Shown here: one piece after another, positions 15,040 through 59,585 of the stretch | Numbering within the stretch: position 1 is the first letter of the stretch | How the letters are laid out: each line of letters starts with the position of its first letter | Notes under the pieces: generated by a model | The model's input: the letters and a program-made list of their open reading frames with translations, nothing else | Database searches by the model: none | What the model was told of the DNA's origin: nothing | NCBI GenBank assembly: GCA_964574035.1 | Contig: CAZNLD010000006.1 | Location: forward strand, 1-61,040 | Reading direction: 5' to 3' | DNA: 61,040 nucleotides | Source: Candidatus Undinarchaeota archaeon | GTDB lineage: Archaea; Undinarchaeota; Undinarchaeia; Undinarchaeales; JALTGF01 | Translations under genes and position numbers: made by a program

Positions 15040-16605
15040 ATGGAAACAAAAGGTTGGATTACAATAGCAGTATTCGCCGTTCTCATTATTGTAGGACTCT
15101 TTATCCTGCTTCCTATGTTAGGTATTGAAATGCCTGATTTTGGAGGTTATTCTTCTCCTGGAGCTTCTTATTATGGCGGAGAACCGACACCTACTGGGGG
15201 AGAAGGGGCTGGTTTTAATTGGGGGTATTTGTTAATAATTCCTGTAATTGCAGTAGTTGGTTATTTAGGATTTAGAAATTTAAAAGACAGCAAGTTTGTT
15301 CTTTGGTTTACTCCTGAAGGAAGAGAAATATTAAAAGAAGAAAGAAGAATAACCCATCTCAAGAAAAAGGAACAGCTTGAACAGCTTAGAAATTTAATGG
15401 AAAATGTTGATGCAGTATTGACAGAAAAGCTCGATAAATATAAACGAGATAAAAAAAGCTGGCCTTTATTAGAATTATATCGAAATAGGCAGAAGCCGCT
15501 AATTAATAAAGACGGCGTAGATTATATAATCAAATTGGCTAGGTATCCCAAGGGCTTAAGCAGTAAAGAAATGATTAAGTCTATTGTAAGGGCCAGAATT
15601 TCTGATTTAAAAAAGGACTGGAAATTTGGCGTTTATACTGACAGTATCCCTGATGCCATAATGGAATTTTCATTTTTAAATGCAGTTATTAGATGGGCCT
15701 ATGAGAGAATGCATCAGGGAGAGCTGCCCGAGTTGGATGAAAGTGAAGGGCGTTTAAGAGTTTTCAGGAGCTTTATGGGGAAGAAAGGAGAACTGGCAAA
15801 AGAACTTATCACTAGTAATAATCTCACCGATTCAATAAAACAAAATTTACGAAATCTTCTTGAATCGTATAATGATAAAGAAACGATGCTGTTACTGCAA
15901 AATTGTGGATTTTTACATCCTGCTGAGTTTAATATAGACCCTGATAAAAGCGCATACCCACAGGATAACAAGCCGCATGCAATGGAAAAGGTTGATGACC
16001 TCATTGGCGATTTTGGTGACAGTCCGTTCAAAGCAATAAGAGAATATACTGTCTTTAAAGGAGACTCGCCCGAAGAAAACCCGGTTAGAGATATGGTTGT
16101 CTGGTCAGTAAATAGTTATAAAAAGTTTTTACAAAAGAAGAAAAACATTCACAAGGTCATGGAGTTTCTAAGACAACAAGATACCCAGGAACTTTTAAAT
16201 GAAGCAATACAGCATAAAAAAGGTGCGCAGGCCCTTAAAAAATTCAAGAATGGCCTTTCGACTTTAGGGGGAGTTTTCCGTAAAACTTTTTCAGATGATT
16301 TAAGGGAGTTGAATAAGTTGACTAATGATCTTTATAATCTTATGGACAATACATACAGCTGGTTTTTACATAGGGAAACTGATAAGATGATAGACCATAT
16401 TCAACTTCGAACTAAATCTTTGGGTTATTCGGAGGGAAATGAAATACCTGAGGATTTCAATAAAAGACTGGCAATGTTGTATTTTTCAGTATTTATGCCC
16501 TGGATTTATGTTCTTTCAACGTATAAATTGCTCTATGTTTTGGTTCTCAAATATTTGGAAAGCGTTGAAATTATACAGGAAGCAATTAATGAATCAGGAG
16601 TTTAA
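15040..16605 (+). CDS. membrane-anchored hypothetical protein
   Basis: TM, Gly/Pro linker, TM N-terminus similar to the preceding gene; helical body. Confidence 0.7.
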   Translation: METKGWITIAVFAVLIIVGLFILLPMLGIEMPDFGGYSSPGASYYGGEPTPTGGEGAGFNWGYLLIIPVIAVVGYLGFRNLKDSKFVLWFTPEGREILKEERRITHLKKKEQLEQLRNLMENVDAVLTEKLDKYKRDKKSWPLLELYRNRQKPLINKDGVDYIIKLARYPKGLSSKEMIKSIVRARISDLKKDWKFGVYTDSIPDAIMEFSFLNAVIRWAYERMHQGELPELDESEGRLRVFRSFMGKKGELAKELITSNNLTDSIKQNLRNLLESYNDKETMLLLQNCGFLHPAEFNIDPDKSAYPQDNKPHAMEKVDDLIGDFGDSPFKAIREYTVFKGDSPEENPVRDMVVWSVNSYKKFLQKKKNIHKVMEFLRQQDTQELLNEAIQHKKGAQALKKFKNGLSTLGGVFRKTFSDDLRELNKLTNDLYNLMDNTYSWFLHRETDKMIDHIQLRTKSLGYSEGNEIPEDFNKRLAMLYFSVFMPWIYVLSTYKLLYVLVLKYLESVEIIQEAINESGV

Positions 16606-21860: not shown

Positions 21861-21927
21861 TTGATGGTTAAAGGTAGATATTAGATGGTGAATGGTTCTG
21901 TCCATAGCTGACAGCTACTGATTGTTA

Positions 21928-21945
21928 TTAACTGGGTTGAGTTAA
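21928..21945. promoter_or_regulatory. TTAACT-N6-AGTTAA palindromic site (copy 1)
   Basis: TTAACTGGGTTGAGTTAA followed by a TATA-like ACTTATAA. Confidence 0.65.
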
Positions 21946-21981
21946 AAAATACTTATAAGCTCCTTTTTTGATTGTTTTCAT

Positions 21982-22332
21982 ATGCAGGATTTCAGAAAAT
22001 TGGACATATATAAAGAAGCAAAAGAGTTAGCTCTTAAAGTCTACACTATAACTTATCACTATCCGGATGAGGAAAAATATGGAATGACTCAACAATTAAG
22101 GAGAGCAGTTACATCTATTGGTGCAAATATAGCGGAAGGATCAGGAAGAAAAAGCAATCAGGATTTTTCCAGATTTTTGACAATGTCTTTAGGCTCAGTA
22201 AATGAGGCTAGATATTTCATAGAAATGTCAAAAGATCTAGATTATATCTCTGGAAGTGAATATGCCTTTCTTTCGAGAAAAATAAGAATTCTAGGCGGAA
22301 AAATTTACAATTTCATTCAGGCCATCAAATAA
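21982..22332 (+). CDS. four helix bundle protein (23S rRNA IVS / bAvd-like family)
   Basis: FRKLDIY, YPDEEKYGMTQQLRRAVTSIGANIAEGSGR, SLGSVNE. Confidence 0.93.
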   Translation: MQDFRKLDIYKEAKELALKVYTITYHYPDEEKYGMTQQLRRAVTSIGANIAEGSGRKSNQDFSRFLTMSLGSVNEARYFIEMSKDLDYISGSEYAFLSRKIRILGGKIYNFIQAIK

Positions 22333-22444
22333 TGTTTACTATTACCATTTACTATTAACTATTTACCATTTTTCACCATAAACCATTTATACCTCTCAAT
22401 CTATCCATTTACCATAAACCATAAACTATTAACCATATATCGAG

Positions 22445-51824: not shown

Positions 51825-52802
51825 TTACCATTCAATATCCACTTCATCAGTCCTATACTTCTGGTCTACTTTACTTTCCTTGAATTTTGTTTCAATGCCT
51901 GCTTTTAACATCAGAGCGCCGGTCCAGGCAATCATTGTTCCGTTGTCTCCGGAGTATTCTTTCGGTACTGTATAGAAATTGGCCTTTCTTTCTTCTGCCA
52001 TAATTTTAATCATTTCTTTAAACCTTGAATTGGCTGCAACTCCTCCTGTAACAATGACTTCCTCTTTTTCTGTATGAGCCATTGCCCTTTCAGTAACTTC
52101 TGTAAGCATTGCAAAGGCAGTTTCCTGTAATGAATAGGCAATTTCTTCCTTCTTTTCCCCTTCTTTGTACTTGTTCCTGCAGGCGGTTGCTAAACCTGTG
52201 AAGCTCAAATCCATTCCCTTTACTGTATAAGGAAGTTCAATGTAATTTTTTGATTTTTTGGCAAGTTTTTCAATTTTAGGGCCTCCCGGATGCTTTAAAC
52301 CCATTGTCCTAGCTACTGAGTCTAAACAGTTTCCAACTGCTATGTCTAAAGTCTCCCCGAATACTCTATATCTTCCTCCTGCAAGGGCTATTACCTGGGT
52401 ATTCCCGCCGGAGCAATACAAAACTACGGGGTCTTCAGCTTCAGTTAAAAGTTTGGCAATTTCTATATGGCCTATGCAGTGGTTAACTCCAAGAAGTGGT
52501 TTGTCGTATTTTATTGATAAGTATCTTGCAATTGATGATGAAATTCTTAGGCAGGCTCCCAATCCGGGTCCTTTTGAATAGGCGAATGCATCAATATCTT
52601 TCAGTTTTAGACCGGCTTTTTTTAATGCTTCTTTCAATACAGGAAAAGAATTCTTTGCAATGAAATCGGCCGCTTTTCTTGGCATGATTCCGCCTTTCTC
52701 TGGTTTGAATGTTTTTCTTGCGTCAGCCAGGATAGCTCCGTCTGTATCTACTATTCCAATTCCAATTGTATGGGCAGTTGATTCAATTCCTAGTACTTTC
52801 AT
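51825..52802 (-). CDS. kae1: tRNA N6-threonylcarbamoyladenosine synthase Kae1 (KEOPS)
   Basis: LGIESTAHT, GPGLGACL, VNHCIGHIE, SGGNTQ, GETLDIAVGN, GGVAAN, DNGTMIA. Confidence 0.96.
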   Translation of the reverse strand: MKVLGIESTAHTIGIGIVDTDGAILADARKTFKPEKGGIMPRKAADFIAKNSFPVLKEALKKAGLKLKDIDAFAYSKGPGLGACLRISSSIARYLSIKYDKPLLGVNHCIGHIEIAKLLTEAEDPVVLYCSGGNTQVIALAGGRYRVFGETLDIAVGNCLDSVARTMGLKHPGGPKIEKLAKKSKNYIELPYTVKGMDLSFTGLATACRNKYKEGEKKEEIAYSLQETAFAMLTEVTERAMAHTEKEEVIVTGGVAANSRFKEMIKIMAEERKANFYTVPKEYSGDNGTMIAWTGALMLKAGIETKFKESKVDQKYRTDEVDIEW

Positions 52803-52816
52803 TTTAGGAGAATTAG

Positions 52817-52863
52817 TTGTTTTTCTTATTTAGTAGTTTCTTTGATTAACTGGCTTGAGTTAA
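52817..52863. repeat. 47-bp direct repeat (left copy) ending in the TTAACT-N6-AGTTAA site
   Basis: Identical to 54144-54190. Confidence 0.92.
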
Positions 52864-52980
52864 GAAAAGCTTATAAGTGATAAAATACTTAATACAAAAA
52901 AGTGTATTACTTTATACAAAAAAGTGGAAAACTATATAAATAAAGAAATAAAATATACAAAAAAGTGGAGAGATAGTAAA

Positions 52981-53517
52981 ATGAGCTATATGAAATATAA
53001 GACTTTCAAACAAAAGAACATGATAAGGCCAATTGCCAGAGTAGAAAAAGAAAACATTCTGAAATTTCAGGAAACTGCTTACAAAGAAGACAGAGAACTT
53101 GCCGGGAAACTGGAATCAGACTTTCCCCGGTGGTCAATTGTTACAGGATACTATGCGATGCACGATATTGCAAAACTTTACATAGCAAAAACACTTTCAG
53201 AACGAATAAGCGGAAAAAATGTACATGCTGCAACTATAACTGCACTGGGCAGGGCTTTAGACGAGCCTAAGGAAAAGAAAAAGGCAGTTGAATTAATGGA
53301 GCAGGCGGAAAAAGAATATAGTAAAGTTACTAATCCAAACCCAAGGTGGATAGCTCAAAAACTCAAAAGAGCGAAGTCGGAGAGAGGAAAGGCGCAGTAT
53401 TACTCTGGTCCTAAAACCGAAAGAACAATAAAGCAGGCGAGAGATTTTAGAATTGAAGTGGTTGAACCTTTTGTTCAACTAGTAGAAAATATAATGGAGG
53501 CAGGAAATGCTGCTTGA
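52981..53517 (+). CDS. HEPN domain protein
   Basis: WSIVTGYYAMH, H in KNVHAAT, ERGKAQYY; overlaps the downstream MNT gene; start codon uncertain. Confidence 0.8.
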   Translation: MSYMKYKTFKQKNMIRPIARVEKENILKFQETAYKEDRELAGKLESDFPRWSIVTGYYAMHDIAKLYIAKTLSERISGKNVHAATITALGRALDEPKEKKKAVELMEQAEKEYSKVTNPNPRWIAQKLKRAKSERGKAQYYSGPKTERTIKQARDFRIEVVEPFVQLVENIMEAGNAA

Positions 53518-54103
53518 AACAGTACTCGGATATAAAAGCTCCTGGAGGGTCCTTGAATTAATGGCGGAAACTCCTGGAAGAAGCTACAGGAGGCAGGAGC
53601 TGAAAGAATATACTCAGCTGGGCAATAAAAGTTTAAGCTCAGCCCTTCAGAGACTTACTCTGGCTGGAATTCTCAGGAAGAAACAAGGCAGATATATTCT
53701 AAACATGTCCAGTAAAACTGTAAGTTCTCTTGTAAAAGAAATAAAATCTGCATGGGCTTTTCTTGGTCACCTGGATTACGATACTAAGATAGTTCTGAAT
53801 GAGTTTACACGAAAGACGATTGATAAATTGTCTGGCATTAGAAAAATTATTTTATTCGGCTCATCTGCAAGGGGGACAGCATCAGAGGACAGTGATATTG
53901 ATATTGCGCTTGTTATTGAAAAGCAGGACAGTGGAGTAAAAGAGAAAATGTATGAGATAACTGAAAAACTTGAGGAAAGATACGGCAGAGAAGTGCAGGT
54001 TCATTATTTTACTCCAGCTGAATTAGAAGACAAAAAGGATAAAATGGCAGAGCAGGTAAGGGAAGAAGGAAAAGATCTTTTAGGAATCCCTGAGTTTGAG
54101 TAG
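53507..54103 (+). CDS. wHTH plus minimal nucleotidyltransferase (MNT) protein
   Basis: N-terminal HTH-like segment; IILFGSSARG...DSDIDIAL. Confidence 0.88.
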   Translation: MLLETVLGYKSSWRVLELMAETPGRSYRRQELKEYTQLGNKSLSSALQRLTLAGILRKKQGRYILNMSSKTVSSLVKEIKSAWAFLGHLDYDTKIVLNEFTRKTIDKLSGIRKIILFGSSARGTASEDSDIDIALVIEKQDSGVKEKMYEITEKLEERYGREVQVHYFTPAELEDKKDKMAEQVREEGKDLLGIPEFE

Positions 54104-54143
54104 TTTACTATTGTTAACAATTGTTCACTAAAGTTAACGAAAA

Positions 54144-54190
54144 TTGTTTTTCTTATTTAGTAGTTTCTTTGATTAACTGGCTTGAGTTAA
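54144..54190. repeat. 47-bp direct repeat (right copy) ending in the TTAACT-N6-AGTTAA site
   Basis: Identical to 52817-52863. Confidence 0.92.
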
Positions 54191-54249
54191 ATTAAACTTA
54201 TAAAAATGTTTTAGCAAGATTTATATACTAATAGACAAATAAGATATAT

Positions 54250-54585
54250 ATGAATATTGGCTTAAAGGATGTAAAAAGAATAAACAAAGAACTGGGCGGA
54301 AACCTAAGGGATTCCGGCAGCCTGGAGTTTGCAATTTCTGCAGGGAAGGATAAATCTGAAAGGAGAAAGCTTGCTCTTTTATGGAGAGCAATTCTTACTG
54401 ACCATCCTTTTGATGATGCAAATAAAAGGACTGTTGAAATAATTACAAGAAAATATGCTAAAGAGAATGATTATGAAGTAGATACTGAAGCCTTAGTTAA
54501 AGAAATTATTGATATTTCAAAGAATAACATTACTAACCTTGACAAAATAGAAAGGAGGATTAAATATGCGGCAACAGGAAATTAA
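54250..54585 (+). CDS. Fic/Doc family toxin
   Basis: Doc-type motif HPFDDANKRT. Confidence 0.88.
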   Translation: MNIGLKDVKRINKELGGNLRDSGSLEFAISAGKDKSERRKLALLWRAILTDHPFDDANKRTVEIITRKYAKENDYEVDTEALVKEIIDISKNNITNLDKIERRIKYAATGN

Positions 54586-54781
54586 ATCTTTAATTGAAGA
54601 AAGCAGAAAGGAAGGCGGAATTACTGCGTTGGAAGAGTACGATAGGACCAGAAAGCTTCCTTTTCAGAAGGAAAGAGTTTCCTTTACTATAGAAAGGAGT
54701 GTTTTGGAAAAGTTCAGACAGAAATACAAAGGGAATATGTCAGAAGTTGTTGAAGAGAAAATAAGGGAAGTTGTTGATTAA
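54566..54781 (+). CDS. putative ribbon-helix-helix antitoxin
   Basis: KERVSFTIERSVLEKFR...NMSEVVE RHH-like pattern; overlaps the toxin gene. Confidence 0.7.
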   Translation: MRQQEIKSLIEESRKEGGITALEEYDRTRKLPFQKERVSFTIERSVLEKFRQKYKGNMSEVVEEKIREVVD

Positions 54782-54795
54782 CTTAACCCAGTCAA
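54778..54795. promoter_or_regulatory. TTAACT-N6-AGTTAA site, inverted and degenerate
   Basis: TTAACTTAACCCAGTCAA has 2 mismatches to the reverse complement of 21928-21945; followed by ATTAAACTTAAAT. Confidence 0.6.
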
Positions 54796-54890
54796 ATTAA
54801 ACTTAAATAGAATATATTGTTTTTAAGAAATTGATGCCGGAGCTCGGCATGACCAACACAGTAATTATGTTGTGTTGAAAGTAGCATATA

Positions 54891-54934
54891 AAATTACTGT
54901 TAAAAATAAAGACAGACTGATTATTGATGTTTAA
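54891..54934 (+). pseudogene. remnant 3' end of an AbrB-type antitoxin gene
   Basis: AAATTACTGTTAAAAATAAAGACAGACTGATTATTGATGTTTAA matches the end of 57171-57518 with 3 mismatches. Confidence 0.7.
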
Positions 54935-55008
54935 TCAGTCTTTCATATAAAAATTAAGTGGGGCCTTACAGTATTAGTGTAAAGCCTTGTTTTACTCAAA
55001 ATTCGCGT

Positions 55009-55224
55009 TTATTCTTCAGAAGCTTCTGCTTTTCTTACGTTTACTGCGTTAGGTCCTTTGTCGCTTTCTTCTTTTTCGAATTCAACTGTGTCTCCTTCTT
55101 TAGGAGTGTATCCTTCTTTAACACTGTTTACGTGGAAGAATAAGTCTTTTCCTTCTTCTGAACCATCTACGTCAATAAAACCGTAGCTTTTTTCTTTTAT
55201 GAATCTTTTTATGTTTCCTTTCAT
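55009..55224 (-). CDS. cspA: cold shock domain protein
   Basis: KSYGFI (RNP1), DLFFHV (RNP2), EGDTVEF, KGPNAVNV; GGAGGTG Shine-Dalgarno. Confidence 0.93.
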   Translation of the reverse strand: MKGNIKRFIKEKSYGFIDVDGSEEGKDLFFHVNSVKEGYTPKEGDTVEFEKEESDKGPNAVNVRKAEASEE

Positions 55225-55341
55225 GTTTAACACCTCCGTGTAACTTCGAAATAATCTCCTATAATTAGCAAAACTATCTCTTATGTTAAATTAATGTGGT
55301 AGATGGTTTAAATAGGTTGGTAATTGAAATTAATCATTAAC

Positions 55342-55359
55342 TTAACTCATTCCAGTTAA
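55342..55359. promoter_or_regulatory. TTAACT-N6-AGTTAA site, inverted
   Basis: TTAACTCATTCCAGTTAA followed by ATTAATTTTATAAA. Confidence 0.65.
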
Positions 55360-55395
55360 ATTAATTTTATAAATTAAAAATTTCAAGCTGGTTCC

Positions 55396-55770
55396 ATGGA
55401 AACATTAGATGTCAGCAGAATTGAATCATTAAGAACAAGCGTTAAGATCATATTTAATTATGGGCATATTGTAGACAACATTTTAGCTAGAGGCTTCAAT
55501 CTCTCGGCTTCTAAAATAATAGATGAAATGAAACAAGCAATTAGGAAGTTCGGAGATTTTATCCCTCATGAAAAAAGCGAAGACAAATTTTATTGCGTTT
55601 ATTTCAATGAAGAAAATGAACTTGTCACTATGCCATGCGTCTTTGAAGGAGGAAGCAGGCCAAAAATTATAGTGTTGAGTATTTTTAGAAAGGATCGGGG
55701 CTGGCTTAAACATATCTGCCAAAAAGTTAACTTTAAATATAGAAAACAACTAGGTAAAGGTGAGAAGTAA
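55396..55770 (+). CDS. putative DUF4258/RelE-like toxin
   Basis: H...ARGF start and terminal IIVLSIF strand; upstream of a YgiT-type zinc finger. Confidence 0.5.
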   Translation: METLDVSRIESLRTSVKIIFNYGHIVDNILARGFNLSASKIIDEMKQAIRKFGDFIPHEKSEDKFYCVYFNEENELVTMPCVFEGGSRPKIIVLSIFRKDRGWLKHICQKVNFKYRKQLGKGEK

Positions 55771-55771
55771 A

Positions 55772-55975
55772 ATGAAATGCGCTTACTGCGACAGTGAAGA
55801 TGTAAAGCTCAAAAAGAACGAAGAGCTTGAAGTTGAACTTAAAAATCCGGGAAAGATTGAACTTCATGCTGATTTTTATAAATGTTTAGACTGTGGAGAA
55901 AAATATTTGGATGAGAAAAATATGGAAAAGGTTGCAAAGAAAATAGACGAAGTAAGAAAAACCATCCAAGATTAA
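55772..55975 (+). CDS. YgiT/MqsA-type zinc finger protein
   Basis: MKCAYC...YKCLDCGEKYLD; AGGTGA Shine-Dalgarno. Confidence 0.82.
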   Translation: MKCAYCDSEDVKLKKNEELEVELKNPGKIELHADFYKCLDCGEKYLDEKNMEKVAKKIDEVRKTIQD

Positions 55976-56029
55976 TAACCTCTAATTATTTAGAAATGTA
56001 TTTAATTAATACAGGTGGATTACTTATTT

Positions 56030-56809
56030 ATGGATAAGAAAATTGGAATAATTGGTATTGGAAGTATGGGAGAAGTTCTTCTAAGGCATATACTGAAACA
56101 GAAAATTGCTGATCCTGAAGATGTGTATATAAGCGATCCTAAAAAAAGTAAACTGGATGAGCTTAAAGAAGAGCTTTCAATTAATACTTCTAATAACAAG
56201 GAAACTGCTGAAAGGTCAGATGTTTTAATTCTGGCTGTAAGACCTCAAGTATTGGAAGATGTTCTGTCTGAGATTAAGTCTTCAGTTACTGAACAGTTAG
56301 TGATTTCTGTTGCTGCAGGGGTGGAGACGGGCTTCATTAAGCGGTTTCTTTCAAATGCTTCCGTTGTAAGGGTCATGCCCAACCTCTTATATACGGTAGG
56401 CAGGGGTTCTGCTGTATATTGTTCTGGAGGTGTAGACTCTGAGGGAGACGAAGAGGTAGTAAAAGAGATATTTGGTACTTCCGGACTCTGTTTTAAGCTT
56501 AATGAGGATAAGATGGATTCGGCAACTGCAGTTATTGGAAGCGGTCCTGCATTTGTTAAGTATCTGGCTGATTCGTTTGTTTCTGGTGCAGAAGAACAGG
56601 GTTTTTCAAAAGAAGATGCTGAAAAGGTTGTTATACAAATATTAAAAGGAACTGCGGACAGTTTTAATGATTCTAGTGATGTTGCAACAAAAGGCGGGGC
56701 AACTATTGAAGGTTTGAAAGTTCTTGAAGAGTATAAAGTTAAGGAAGCTGTTTCTGAATGTTTGAAAGCTGTTAAGAAAAGGGCTGAAGAATTGAAGCAA
56801 AGGGAATGA
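56030..56809 (+). CDS. proC: pyrroline-5-carboxylate reductase
   Basis: IGIIGIGSMG, LAVRPQ, ISVAAG, VRVMPN, GSGPAF, VATKGGATIEGL. Confidence 0.94.
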   Translation: MDKKIGIIGIGSMGEVLLRHILKQKIADPEDVYISDPKKSKLDELKEELSINTSNNKETAERSDVLILAVRPQVLEDVLSEIKSSVTEQLVISVAAGVETGFIKRFLSNASVVRVMPNLLYTVGRGSAVYCSGGVDSEGDEEVVKEIFGTSGLCFKLNEDKMDSATAVIGSGPAFVKYLADSFVSGAEEQGFSKEDAEKVVIQILKGTADSFNDSSDVATKGGATIEGLKVLEEYKVKEAVSECLKAVKKRAEELKQRE

Positions 56810-56844
56810 AGGTTGTTTGTAGGTCGTAAGTAGTATTTATCCAA

Positions 56845-56862
56845 TTAACTCAGTTGAGTTAA
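56845..56862. promoter_or_regulatory. TTAACT-N6-AGTTAA site
   Basis: TTAACTCAGTTGAGTTAA followed by ATTAAACTTATAA, as after the site at 54173-54190. Confidence 0.7.
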
Positions 56863-56935
56863 ATTAAACTTATAAGTACTTCTGCTGATTCTCTATTTGA
56901 TAAAAAGATATATATAATGTTATAACTTTGTTAAT

Positions 56936-57187
56936 ATGAAAGATATACTCTGGACAAAACACGCCTTGAAGTCGGCATCAGAAGATAGATTTGCAACGAC
57001 TGACGTTGAAAAAAATCTGAACAATATAGTGCATCTATATTCAGAAAATGGGAAGAAAAAAGGCGTGATTAAAGTTGGAGAAAGATACTGCACCATAATA
57101 TATTGCAAAGGATCCGGTAAACTTAAGATAATAACCTGCTGGAAAAGCAGCTGGTGGGAAGTGAAAGCATATGAAAGAGAAAGGTAA
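56936..57187 (+). CDS. DUF4258-like toxin
   Basis: WTKHA...DRF, LKIITCW, WEVKAY. Confidence 0.72.
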   Translation: MKDILWTKHALKSASEDRFATTDVEKNLNNIVHLYSENGKKKGVIKVGERYCTIIYCKGSGKLKIITCWKSSWWEVKAYERER

Positions 57188-57518
57188 AAAATGCACCTGC
57201 GGTGCGAAAATGAAGAAGATTAAGACAGACATGGAATTATACGACGGCAGTATAGTAGTGAAAGATGTTGAAGCTTATTACTGCGAAAAATGCAATGAAG
57301 AAGTATTTACAAGCGAGCAGGCAGAGAAGGCGCAGAATAAAATGAAAGAAGCCTATCCTGGATTTGAGCCGTTTACTGTAGAGAAAAAGATTGCAAAGCT
57401 TGGCAATTCACTATCTATTCCTGTTTCAAAAGAAATTGCTGATTTTGTACATCTGAAGAAAGGCAAGGAAGTAAAAATTACTGTTAAGAATAAAGACAGA
57501 CTAATTGTTGATGTTTAA
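57171..57518 (+). CDS. YgiT-type zinc finger plus AbrB/MazE DNA-binding antitoxin
   Basis: KCTCG...DVEAYYCEKCNEEVFT; KIAKLGNSLSIPVSKEIA...LKKGKEV. Confidence 0.85.
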   Translation: MKEKGKKCTCGAKMKKIKTDMELYDGSIVVKDVEAYYCEKCNEEVFTSEQAEKAQNKMKEAYPGFEPFTVEKKIAKLGNSLSIPVSKEIADFVHLKKGKEVKITVKNKDRLIVDV

Positions 57519-57589
57519 TGGTTTTGAAGGTCAGTATGGAAAGGCAGTACAGAATTTTAAAGCAGAAAGATAAGTTCGTATCTTTGGAT

Positions 57590-57624
57590 GAATTGAAGCA
57601 AAGGGAATGACTGGCTTGAATGAA
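57590..57624. repeat. 21-bp copy of the proC 3' end fused to a degenerate site
   Basis: GAATTGAAGCAAAGGGAATGA equals 56789-56809 and continues into ACTGGCTTGAATGAA. Confidence 0.75.
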
Positions 57625-57634
57625 TTTATATTTT

Positions 57635-58219
57635 CTAAACTATTGTCATTAAAAGAACAAATAAATTGCCGGCTAAATGGACTAGGATAGGAGCCGTTAT
57701 GTTTCTGTCGTTTGCCAGGTATGCATATCCAAAGATTGTGCCTCCGAAGAATTTTAAAAGAATCTGCTCTGGTGCAAAGTTTCCGTGGACCAGGACAAAT
57801 AATAGGGAGGAAATGATTAAACCTAATGCAGTTTCTGCGTTTTTGTTTTCTAAATACCTGTTGAAAAACAGCAGAAGCAGAGATAAAACAACGCCTCTGA
57901 AGAAGAGTTCTTCTGCAATTGGTCCGAGAGTAACTGCATCTAAACTGCAGAGAATATGGCTGAAACCCTGAAACGGAGTGTTGAACAAAGAAGTCACGGC
58001 AGTTTTCAGGAGTAGTATTAGTATTATTGAAAGAAGAATAGTTTTCAGATTTATGCTGGTTCTTGGAATTAAAGATTTGGAGATGTATTTTTTATATTTG
58101 GTTTTTGAAATCGGAAAAAACTCTATAAAAGGCGGAGCTATGAACAAAGCTAAAAGAGATGCAACTATGAACAAGAAATCCCATCCGATTGTATTTATGA
58201 AGCATAAAGGGAGTGCCAT
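57635..58219 (-). CDS. CPBP (CAAX/Abi) family intramembrane metalloprotease
   Basis: PIAEELFFRG, FVLVH, ILVHLAGN. Confidence 0.92.
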   Translation of the reverse strand: MALPLCFINTIGWDFLFIVASLLALFIAPPFIEFFPISKTKYKKYISKSLIPRTSINLKTILLSIILILLLKTAVTSLFNTPFQGFSHILCSLDAVTLGPIAEELFFRGVVLSLLLLFFNRYLENKNAETALGLIISSLLFVLVHGNFAPEQILLKFFGGTIFGYAYLANDRNITAPILVHLAGNLFVLLMTIV

Positions 58220-58403
58220 GGAGAGGAATAAGGGGTTGGAGTATTAAAATAATTGGTATAGAGGAAGATATTTAAGAAATAATATTTAGAATTGAAGTAC
58301 TGTGTGAATCTCAAAACAGCACTCTTTTTGAAAAAATTGCCGTCAAAAAACAAGTATAAAACAAATTATTCTAATCCAGTATAGACTATATTTGAAGCGC
58401 CTC

Positions 58404-58808: not shown

Positions 58809-58949
58809 TTACCAGCGGCGCCTCAGAATGTAAATGGGTGCCCCACCAAAACTTTACAGGTAGCGAATATGTTCCTAAATAGAAAGGTATATATAGTAAA
58901 AGAACATGTTCTTATACTAAGCAGTATATATAATAAAAACACATATAAA

Positions 58950-59585
58950 ATGAAGGGCTGGAAAAAAGAACGGATAATACGGGTATTGTTGAACCATCCA
59001 GACGGCAGTCTGACAATGTACAGGGTGGCAAAAGAAGCCGAAACCCATCACAGTTGGGCTATTAAAGTTATTAAACGATTAGAAAAAAAGAACCTGCTTA
59101 AAGGAACCAAAGTAATTGATCCGCGCGGGCTGTTTGATCATTGGGTTAGCATACACAAAAGACCGAAGCATCGGGATTATAATGTAAGGGACCCTCCCCA
59201 GCTTTTAAGGCAGGGAGGCAAAAAAGGACTGGAATATGCCTTAACTACATACGCTGCAGAAAGCTCTGTCCAAAAGTATCTTTTCCTTTCGCGCTATGAC
59301 CTTTATATAAAGGATTTAGACCAGTGGCACGAACTAGCCATTGAAAGCGGAGTAAGGGGTGGCGGGAATTTCAGGATTTTATATGATGCCGATCCGCACA
59401 TTTTTTACGGTGTCCATACTACTGGTCTGAGATTATCTCATAACAAAGAAAAAGGTCCTGCTCTAACTCTTGGCACGCTCCCCGTGGTTTCTATCCCGCA
59501 ACTAATCCTTGACCTTATGGTAGAGGGTGGGCCCTGCACGGAAGCCGCAGAACTACTAATTAAAAGGCATTTGGAGAGGCGATAA
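58950..59585 (+). CDS. wHTH protein, AbiEi-like (type IV TA) antitoxin candidate
   Basis: N-terminal HTH (MYRVAKEA...KRLEKK), YALTTYAA, VVSIPQLILDL...EAAE; ATG at 58950 follows a TATA-like tract. Confidence 0.7.
   Translation: MKGWKKERIIRVLLNHPDGSLTMYRVAKEAETHHSWAIKVIKRLEKKNLLKGTKVIDPRGLFDHWVSIHKRPKHRDYNVRDPPQLLRQGGKKGLEYALTTYAAESSVQKYLFLSRYDLYIKDLDQWHELAIESGVRGGGNFRILYDADPHIFYGVHTTGLRLSHNKEKGPALTLGTLPVVSIPQLILDLMVEGGPCTEAAELLIKRHLERR

Follow-up and report, generated by a model that had tools for sequence, protein, structure and literature searches.

A palindromic promoter element, probably an operator, shared by toxin-antitoxin cassettes and by replication and recombination genes in Undinarchaeales

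Contig CAZNLD010000006.1 of a Candidatus Undinarchaeota archaeon (assembly GCA_964574035.1) carries a row of unrelated toxin-antitoxin (TA) cassettes, each headed by the same 18-bp palindrome, TTAACT-N6-AGTTAA, which raises the question of what one short site does ahead of genes of such different kinds. The window that we analyzed is this entire contig of 61,040 nt; it belongs to an assembly of 858 kb in 29 contigs, with ~36% G+C and 84% completeness (labelled G000 here). An original prediction, made from the letters of the window, offered two readings: a core site for tyrosine recombinase-mediated cassette shuffling, as in pdif modules or integrons, or the regulon of one transcription factor covering unrelated TA modules. 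Its interpretation was supported in part, because the regulon reading was upheld and widened, by a fixed register with the TATA box and the start codon and by order-wide conservation ahead of RadB, RPA and MCM genes, while the shuffling reading was not. We conclude that the palindrome is, with good probability, the operator of one dimeric DNA-binding regulator, set inside a standard archaeal promoter, and we use the word operator in this sense below.

Position of the palindrome within the promoter

Five exact copies of the palindrome occur in the window (at 21928, 52846, 54173, 55342 and 56845), where 0.01 would be expected, and none of 100 shuffled windows attained this number. A genome-wide motif scan, which the original prediction had proposed as a check, yielded 19 exact copies in 858 kb versus 0.30 expected from base composition, and a reversed-pattern control gave no matches in G000. 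Two further copies in the window are imperfect: that at 54778 has one mismatch, and that at 57607 matches at 14 of 18 positions and contains a 10-nt run, ACTGGCTTGA, that is the same in the copies at 52846 and 54173. These results agree with the list of window sites drawn up earlier. That list described the sites at 54778 and 55342 as inverted, which concerns the spacer letters alone; every site in the window is oriented alike relative to the TATA box. Nor does the asymmetric spacer serve as a defined core, as had been supposed, since 16 distinct spacers were found over the 19 exact sites, both ends of the spacer being mostly G or C. The arms are merely 6-7 bp long, and the half-sites of the dyad are spaced 12 bp apart.

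A TATA-like sequence had been said to follow the site usually, and the rule proved to be stricter than this: the sequence TTWWAW (mostly TTATAA) lies exactly 7 nt past exactly one arm at 19/19 exact sites, against a background of 0.010 per position. The ATG that opens the downstream open reading frame (ORF) is found 36 nt from the palindrome at ten sites, 37 nt at two and 39 nt at one (13/19 at 36-39 nt), and at 59-117 nt for the remaining six. The parts are thus ordered as palindrome, 7 nt of A-rich sequence resembling a TFB recognition element (BRE), TTATAA, ~23 nt and ATG, with the palindrome abutting the BRE at about -54 to -37 from the start and the TATA box beginning 29 nt ahead of the ATG. 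Because archaeal transcription usually starts at such a distance from a TATA box, this geometry predicts that most operator-headed genes, and the majority of their transcripts, would be leaderless. The invariant TATA register, together with the ATG spacing, therefore makes the palindrome a constant component of an archaeal promoter that is mostly leaderless, and such a register with the BRE, the TATA box and the start (19/19 for TATA, 13/19 for ATG) is that of an operator lying upstream of the BRE.

The fixed register with the BRE and TATA box would also suit an explanation without any specific regulator, in which the palindrome is an extended basal element, recognized by a TFB or TBP variant or by a chromatin protein, that marks strong or constitutive leaderless promoters; the functional mixture of the headed genes, with transporters and secreted proteins among them, fits this as well. 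However, a crude scan for ORFs with a TATA-like box at leaderless distance returned 221 putative leaderless promoters, just 11 of which have the palindrome, and 209 without any palindrome are featureless upstream of the A-rich BRE. The palindrome is an add-on to ~5% of promoters. Furthermore, the symmetry of the dyad, whose half-sites are 12 bp apart, and its N16 spacer variant (+10 bp) in one genus suit a dimeric regulator better than they would a basal factor acting as a monomer. We regard a basal element as highly unlikely.

Headed genes and conservation across the order

Although the original prediction saw no site ahead of core genes, the operator genome-wide heads RadB with PyrD behind it, an OB-fold gene with TctA behind it, and MCM, and a copy with one mismatch lies between ScpB and the RPA-RadA operon, with the RPA ATG at 36 nt. 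Accessory genes headed by the operator outside the window comprise an RHH and ParE pair, a DUF7557 and MazF pair, a PIN gene, a pair encoding a 114-aa protein and DUF2283, a LAGLIDADG gene, a pair encoding 86-aa and 110-aa proteins, three genes for membrane or secreted proteins and two more four-helix-bundle genes. All three four-helix-bundle (IVP) paralogues, which are 38-55% identical, retain the site, and it is missing from some relatives of the cassette genes (two MNT-like, one RHH and one LAGLIDADG).

The sister genome from the same genus (G001) has 11 exact sites, a genome of the same family (G002) has 5, and four other genomes of the order have 4, 2, 1 and 1; 28 genomes from outside the order have none. 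Of the 11 sites in G001, seven head orthologues of site-bearing genes of G000, namely RadB, OB-fold/TctA, a secreted protein, RHH with ParE, the 86-aa pair, Doc and MCM, with different spacers and with the same ATG distance where the gene is leaderless. When 13 genomes of the order were searched with the oriented pattern YWAACY-N6-AGTTAA-N7-TTWWAW, nine contained it (21, 12, 6, 11, 8, 3, 12, 5 and 3 matches), and its reversed control matched nowhere in these 13. Behind 42 such sites in the relatives, the first ORFs include 23S_rRNA_IVP (7), TctA (4), Rad51/RadB (3), RNase J (2), OB-fold (2), LAGLIDADG (2) and RPA (1).

The RadB promoter was the most consistent. A recognizable operator at the same TATA distance, variants included, was present in 11/11 RadB promoters examined: six have an N6 spacer and at most two mismatches, two have three mismatches, one (G008) is degenerate, was read by eye and is followed by a weaker TATA box, and two genomes of one genus (G003 and G010) have N16 rather than N6. 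The operator was likewise found in 7/10 RPA promoters and in MCM promoters of several families. Its left arm varies by lineage (TTAACT, TAAACT, CTAACT or TTAACC, in addition to the N16 spacing). This combination of conservation at orthologous promoters (RadB 11/11, RPA 7/10), conserved half-sites and a free spacer is the presumptive footprint of a protein-binding operator under selection. Altogether, the operator is probably conserved throughout the order Undinarchaeales (DPANN). Conserved members of the set are RadB, RPA(-RadA), MCM, RNase J, TctA and the four-helix-bundle (IVP/Avd-like) genes, and in the genus studied here the operator additionally heads about a dozen TA, PIN and LAGLIDADG modules. 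From this distribution, the putative core regulon is one of replication and recombination genes, to which the TA modules are mainly a genus-level addition.

Several smaller observations were made on the headed genes and their promoters. In the G003 and G010 promoters of RadB, MCM and RPA (L128, L126, L113, L114 and L063), the arms are 16 nt apart around a conserved central AAGTRT, and this N16 spacing is one helical turn (+10 bp) more than N6. A conserved protein of 59-66 aa (MGNLPDFKAVTKVGDKRW...) with no family match is encoded at G000:C4:12475-12657 and in relatives (L170, L145 and L160), and its gene is operator-headed in four genomes from three families. A second LAGLIDADG gene (G000:C11:27166-27762) is without the operator; upstream of it, in the same frame, a sequence resembling a 5' tRNA half was seen by eye, and neither ARAGORN nor Rfam found a tRNA beside this gene. 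At G000:C5 ~54380-54640 (L007 2990-3250, minus strand), a translation made by eye suggests a small RHH-like gene with its own promoter, convergent with the operator-headed PIN gene, and it could be an opposite-strand antitoxin for the PIN gene.

The recombination reading and the cassettes of the island

A site-specific recombinase of the Xer/pdif or integron type, acting on the palindrome to insert, excise and invert accessory cassettes, would account for inverted arms around a 6-nt spacer and for the many accessory cassettes so headed. The original prediction placed the cassette breakpoints in the spacer under this explanation. Four cassettes are present in G000 and missing from G001 with cleanly alignable flanks, and their left breakpoints are as follows.

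Window four-helix-bundle cassette (21861-22440): 68 nt upstream of the palindrome
Four-helix-bundle cassette on C2: 161 nt upstream of the palindrome
PIN cassette on C5: ~10-16 nt upstream of the palindrome
MazF cassette on C12: 229 nt upstream of the palindrome

All four breakpoints thus fall outside the palindrome, ~10 to 229 nt upstream of it. The window cassette is wholly missing from G001, and the palindrome is absent from 4/4 of the empty sites, so it travels inside the cassette, as part of the cassette promoter. Short degenerate repeats, arranged in inverted arrays, border both of the missing four-helix-bundle (23S rRNA IVP) cassettes (21861-21927 and 22333-22440 in the window; ~15588-15748 and 16157-16380 on G000:C2), which suggests that these cassettes are a mobile unit with its own ends.

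The search for a cognate enzyme, which had also been proposed, gave no tyrosine or serine recombinase in the 84%-complete G000, with 0 matches to PF00589 (Phage_integrase) and PF00239 (Resolvase). PF00589 had one match in G001, an integrase-like protein of 430 aa without a homologue in G000, and two in G002, on contigs of 2.5 and 1.2 kb. Tyrosine recombinase strand exchange requires matching spacers, a requirement at odds with the 16 kinds of spacer in 19 sites. The dif/pdif/XerA class is accordingly lacking here in its shared spacer, its cognate recombinase and its breakpoints within the site. Rfam gave no match to the element, and a long hairpin of the attC type was not found.

Integron attC sites, archaeal ones included, are imperfect inverted repeats of 55-141 nt that fold as single strands and stand 3' of mostly promoterless cassettes (PMC9668308). 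With pdif, Xer and attC sites, the present site shares short inverted arms with a spacer and an association with small accessory cassettes, TA pairs among them. It differs in that no recombinase was found, the spacers are unshared, the empty sites are without the motif and there is no fold of 55-141 nt. Its conserved unit is an 18-bp dyad with BRE and TATA box, 5' of genes and in register with the TATA box, unlike the 3' position of attC.

Four DNA runs of one study, and no RNA run, were found to contain this sequence. Contigs assembled from the four showed no joints at the palindromes; this is weak evidence, as contigs hide rare forms. These contigs break at a 47-bp repeat that is described below. 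The one joint in them, from 52166 to 58271, is unreliable, with a side of 21 nt. Loose contig ends at 55342 and 55373 represent a cross-match of the promoter of G000:C5:53890, and one at 54190 is not in G000. In X2, the contig depth is 15.7 over the HEPN-like/MNT cassette, versus 20.9 and 20.7 alongside, a difference unusable as evidence.

Further support for recombination at the palindrome could be drawn from the 47-bp perfect direct repeats that flank the HEPN-like/MNT cassette and end at the palindrome edge, from the Doc cassette, which has different contexts in the two genomes and homology beginning at the palindrome, and from the integrase-like gene of G001. Against this stand the breakpoints, the empty sites, the spacers, the missing enzyme and hairpin and the absence of joints, weak as the last is. 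In addition, the arms are very short, the fixed 7-nt TATA distance (19/19) plays no role in recombination, and the site is kept ahead of the core genes RadB, RPA and MCM across families. A dedicated recombination site of this kind is, in our judgment, extremely unlikely, and the shuffling system put forward in the original prediction was not borne out.

The cassettes and repeats of the window, all on the + strand, are listed here.

21928..21945: exact operator palindrome TTAACTGGGTTGAGTTAA, with TATA box (TTATAA) at 21953-21958 and leaderless ATG at 21982
21982..22332: four-helix-bundle gene (23S rRNA IVP / TIGR02436, E 1e-32) under the 21928 operator
52817..52863: 47-bp perfect direct repeat, copy A (100% over 47 nt), ending at the right edge of the palindrome 52846-52863
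52846..52876: operator, 7-nt BRE-like stretch and TATA box (52871-52876) of the HEPN-like/MNT cassette
52981..53517: putative HEPN-like toxin, 178 aa, family unconfirmed
53507..54103: nucleotidyltransferase of the MNT type (MntA-like), extended at its N terminus (NTP_transf_2, E 3e-13)
54144..54190: 47-bp perfect direct repeat, copy B, which includes the palindrome 54173-54190
54173..54203: operator, BRE-like stretch and TATA box (54198-54203) of the Doc cassette
54250..54781: Doc-like toxin (54250-54585), paired with a small protein of the RHH/CcdA-like type (54566-54781)
54778..54808: operator in decay, with a TTAAAT box and one mismatch; its orthologue in G001 is an exact copy that drives two genes
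54890..54935: 46-bp remnant of a YgiT-AbrB gene, from its 3' end, 93% identical to 57474-57519
55342..55372: operator, BRE-like stretch and TATA box (55367-55372), with leaderless ATG at 55396
55396..55975: protein of 124 aa that matches no recognised family (55396-55770), with a zinc ribbon of the YgiT/MqsA type, 67 aa (55772-55975)
56030..56809: proC (pyrroline-5-carboxylate reductase), a core gene flanked by two cassettes
56845..56875: operator, BRE-like stretch and TATA box (56870-56875)
56936..57518: 83-aa DUF4258-like protein and a 115-aa protein in which a YgiT zinc finger is joined to an AbrB-like tail
57587..57624: repeat of the last 24 bp of proC (57587-57610), leading into the degenerate palindrome (57607-57624, 14/18)

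The gene families named in the original prediction held for the MNT nucleotidyltransferase, the four-helix-bundle protein and the YgiT finger of the 115-aa protein (YgiT_finger, 28.6 bits, above the cut-off). The HEPN assignment was not confirmed: the 178-aa protein had no match in Pfam, NCBIfam, PADLOC or PDB, an Atlas lead gave HEPN on 14% of the nearest cluster, and a single-sequence AlphaFold2 (AF2) model was unusable (pLDDT 39.7). Matches below the cut-off were obtained for Doc (TIGR01550, E 5e-6), the 67-aa YgiT protein (TIGR03830, E 9e-6) and the AbrB-like tail (doc_partner, E 3e-5), and the DUF4258 assignment of the 83-aa protein is weak (E 0.013). Two features were noted within the HEPN-like/MNT cassette. 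At 52891-52982, after the TATA box and before the HEPN-like gene starts, are three direct repeats of ~16-29 nt (core TATACAAAAAAGTGGA), probably an operator that the cassette itself supplies for its MNT partner; an overlapping palindrome around GTTAACAATTGTT at 54103-54138, immediately past the MNT stop codon, may be a terminator or a further operator.

Island repeats, candidate regulators and known systems

Several observations weigh against the operator reading. Both copies of the 47-bp repeat (52817-52863 and 54144-54190) share their exact right end with the palindrome, the repeat of the proC end (57587-57610) runs straight into the half-degenerate palindrome, and the homology of the Doc cassette between G000 and G001 begins at the palindrome; breakpoints this near to it hint that recombination is perhaps also favoured by the palindrome. 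Leaderless starts, co-regulation and the direction of control are all predicted from promoter geometry. The operator stands upstream of none of the 17 winged-helix candidates examined in G000. The 86-aa/110-aa winged-helix pair was rejected as the regulator, since it occurs in 6/13 genomes of the order, is multi-copy in some and is missing from operator-bearing genomes, and so was the LAGLIDADG protein as a binder or cutter, because it is of the two-motif monomer type and has homologues in 2/13 genomes only.

The island repeats could mean that the palindrome is an operator first and that the dispersed promoter modules of 30-50 bp also provide short homology on which RadA-type recombination or gene conversion acts, promoters then being the preferred places for TA cassettes to be gained, lost and re-ordered. 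Such a role would add to the operator reading and not exclude it. One cassette is flanked by the 47-bp perfect duplication, the degenerate palindrome at the end of the proC-end repeat has the same spacer, GGCTTG, and a decayed promoter adjoins a gene remnant (54778-54935). The Doc block, 84% identical to that of G001, is bounded by promoter modules in both genomes; in G001 it lies between two exact sites, has other neighbours and is inverted relative to csp. On the other hand, a single island supplies all of this evidence, the four clean presence/absence cases have breakpoints off the palindrome and empty sites without the module, and the shared modules are short (~32 bp, 88-94% identity) and a poor substrate for homologous recombination. 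We therefore consider this added role rather unlikely. The local repeats (the 47-bp repeat, the 24-bp proC end and the AbrB remnant) are best read as by-products of recombination in the TA island; together, these features show that the island is dynamic, and they allow a secondary role for short homology without requiring a dedicated recombinase.

Returning to the operator reading, a host regulator would bind the dyad beside the BRE and aid or hinder recruitment of TFB and TBP, so that replication and recombination genes and nuclease/toxin modules would change together. Because the operator lies upstream of the BRE, a position typical of archaeal activators, we lean slightly toward activation over repression; occlusion of the BRE would also be possible. 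DNA damage, replication stress or the cell cycle may provide the signal. The winged-helix candidates of G000 include at least six genes of the TrmB type (C18:907-1110, C14:5812-5997, C2:101551-101742, C5:21737-21883, C1:55944-56063 and C3:67484-67624) and one of the Lrp type (C1:11531-11683), none of them operator-headed. Orc1/Cdc6 was rejected as the binder, as the palindrome bears no relation to the origin boxes that precede orc1/cdc6 (C5:38500-39137). This region (G000:C5:38500-39137) contains a cluster of repeats resembling origin recognition boxes (TTCCACTTGAAATGA...GGTGTG type), is followed by orc1/cdc6 and then by DNA polymerase genes, and is likely a replication origin.

Archaeal operators that lie just upstream of the BRE and TATA box are exemplified by the glycolytic motif of Thermococcales, TATCAC-N5-GTGATA (TrmBL1/Tgr), the TFB-RF1 site and the Ptr2 sites. 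The present operator resembles those of the TrmBL1/Tgr type as a dyad of 6-N5/6-6 form at a fixed place by the BRE and TATA box, with unlinked promoters forming a regulon, and it would share with them the trait that the effect is decided by position relative to the TATA box. It differs in its sequence, in its uncultivated DPANN host and in a target set that mixes replication and recombination genes with mobile toxin and nuclease cassettes.

The target content also recalls the bacterial SOS response governed by LexA, in which one palindromic operator stands ahead of recombinase and repair genes and several unrelated TA modules; E. coli RelE homologues induced by stress and Caulobacter higBA are reportedly examples of SOS-controlled TA modules. 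Here, the operator precedes RadB, the RPA-RadA operon and MCM. Unlike SOS, no Peptidase_S24 (LexA-like) match was found in G000, the promoter is archaeal and the operator is upstream of the TATA box, not over it. The likeness is one of target content. It is conceivable, and on balance doubtful, that the set is an inducible stress regulon of Undinarchaeales, a counterpart of SOS, that couples RadA, RadB, RPA and MCM to mobile nuclease and toxin genes, with the repair-gene operator of the host captured by mobile cassettes that circulate in the lineage. A fleet of nucleases and toxins (TA modules, PIN, LAGLIDADG and IVP/Avd-like proteins) would then fire upon chromosome damage or invasion, and the dispersed promoter modules would additionally seed cassette rearrangements.

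The DNA-damage regulon of Sulfolobus, in which a short hexamer promoter motif is bound by the Orc1/Cdc6 paralogue Orc1-2, is similar in that archaeal DNA-transaction genes are marked by a common promoter motif, and dissimilar in that the origin boxes by orc1/cdc6 here are unrelated to the palindrome. In archaeal viruses, conserved regulatory sequences reportedly head unrelated anti-defence genes (PMC11065993). The two cases share unrelated accessory genes under one promoter-linked regulatory sequence; unlike those viral early promoters, the operator here is chromosomal and is used by core genes across an order.

A search of the literature for the motif or the regulon found no description. In one genus, mobile TA and nuclease cassettes share an operator with host replication and recombination genes, an arrangement that, to our knowledge, has not been described in archaea. 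DPANN archaea are uncultivated and their gene regulation is almost uncharted. The present results provide a precise cis-element for this group, in register with the TATA box and the start codon, and a list of targets across the order with RadB, RPA-RadA and MCM at its centre, and they remove a tempting false lead, that of archaeal pdif- or integron-like shuffling. The lineage changes in the left arm and spacing can be matched to changes in recognition helices, which offers a way to the regulator.

Finally, a tandem 37-bp repeat is located at 58865-58938 in the window. Each copy consists of a GAAYATGTTC palindrome and a TATATA stretch. The repeat is upstream of a winged-helix gene (58950-59585, weakly MarR_2-like), and the same motif occurs beside the Doc promoter in G001.

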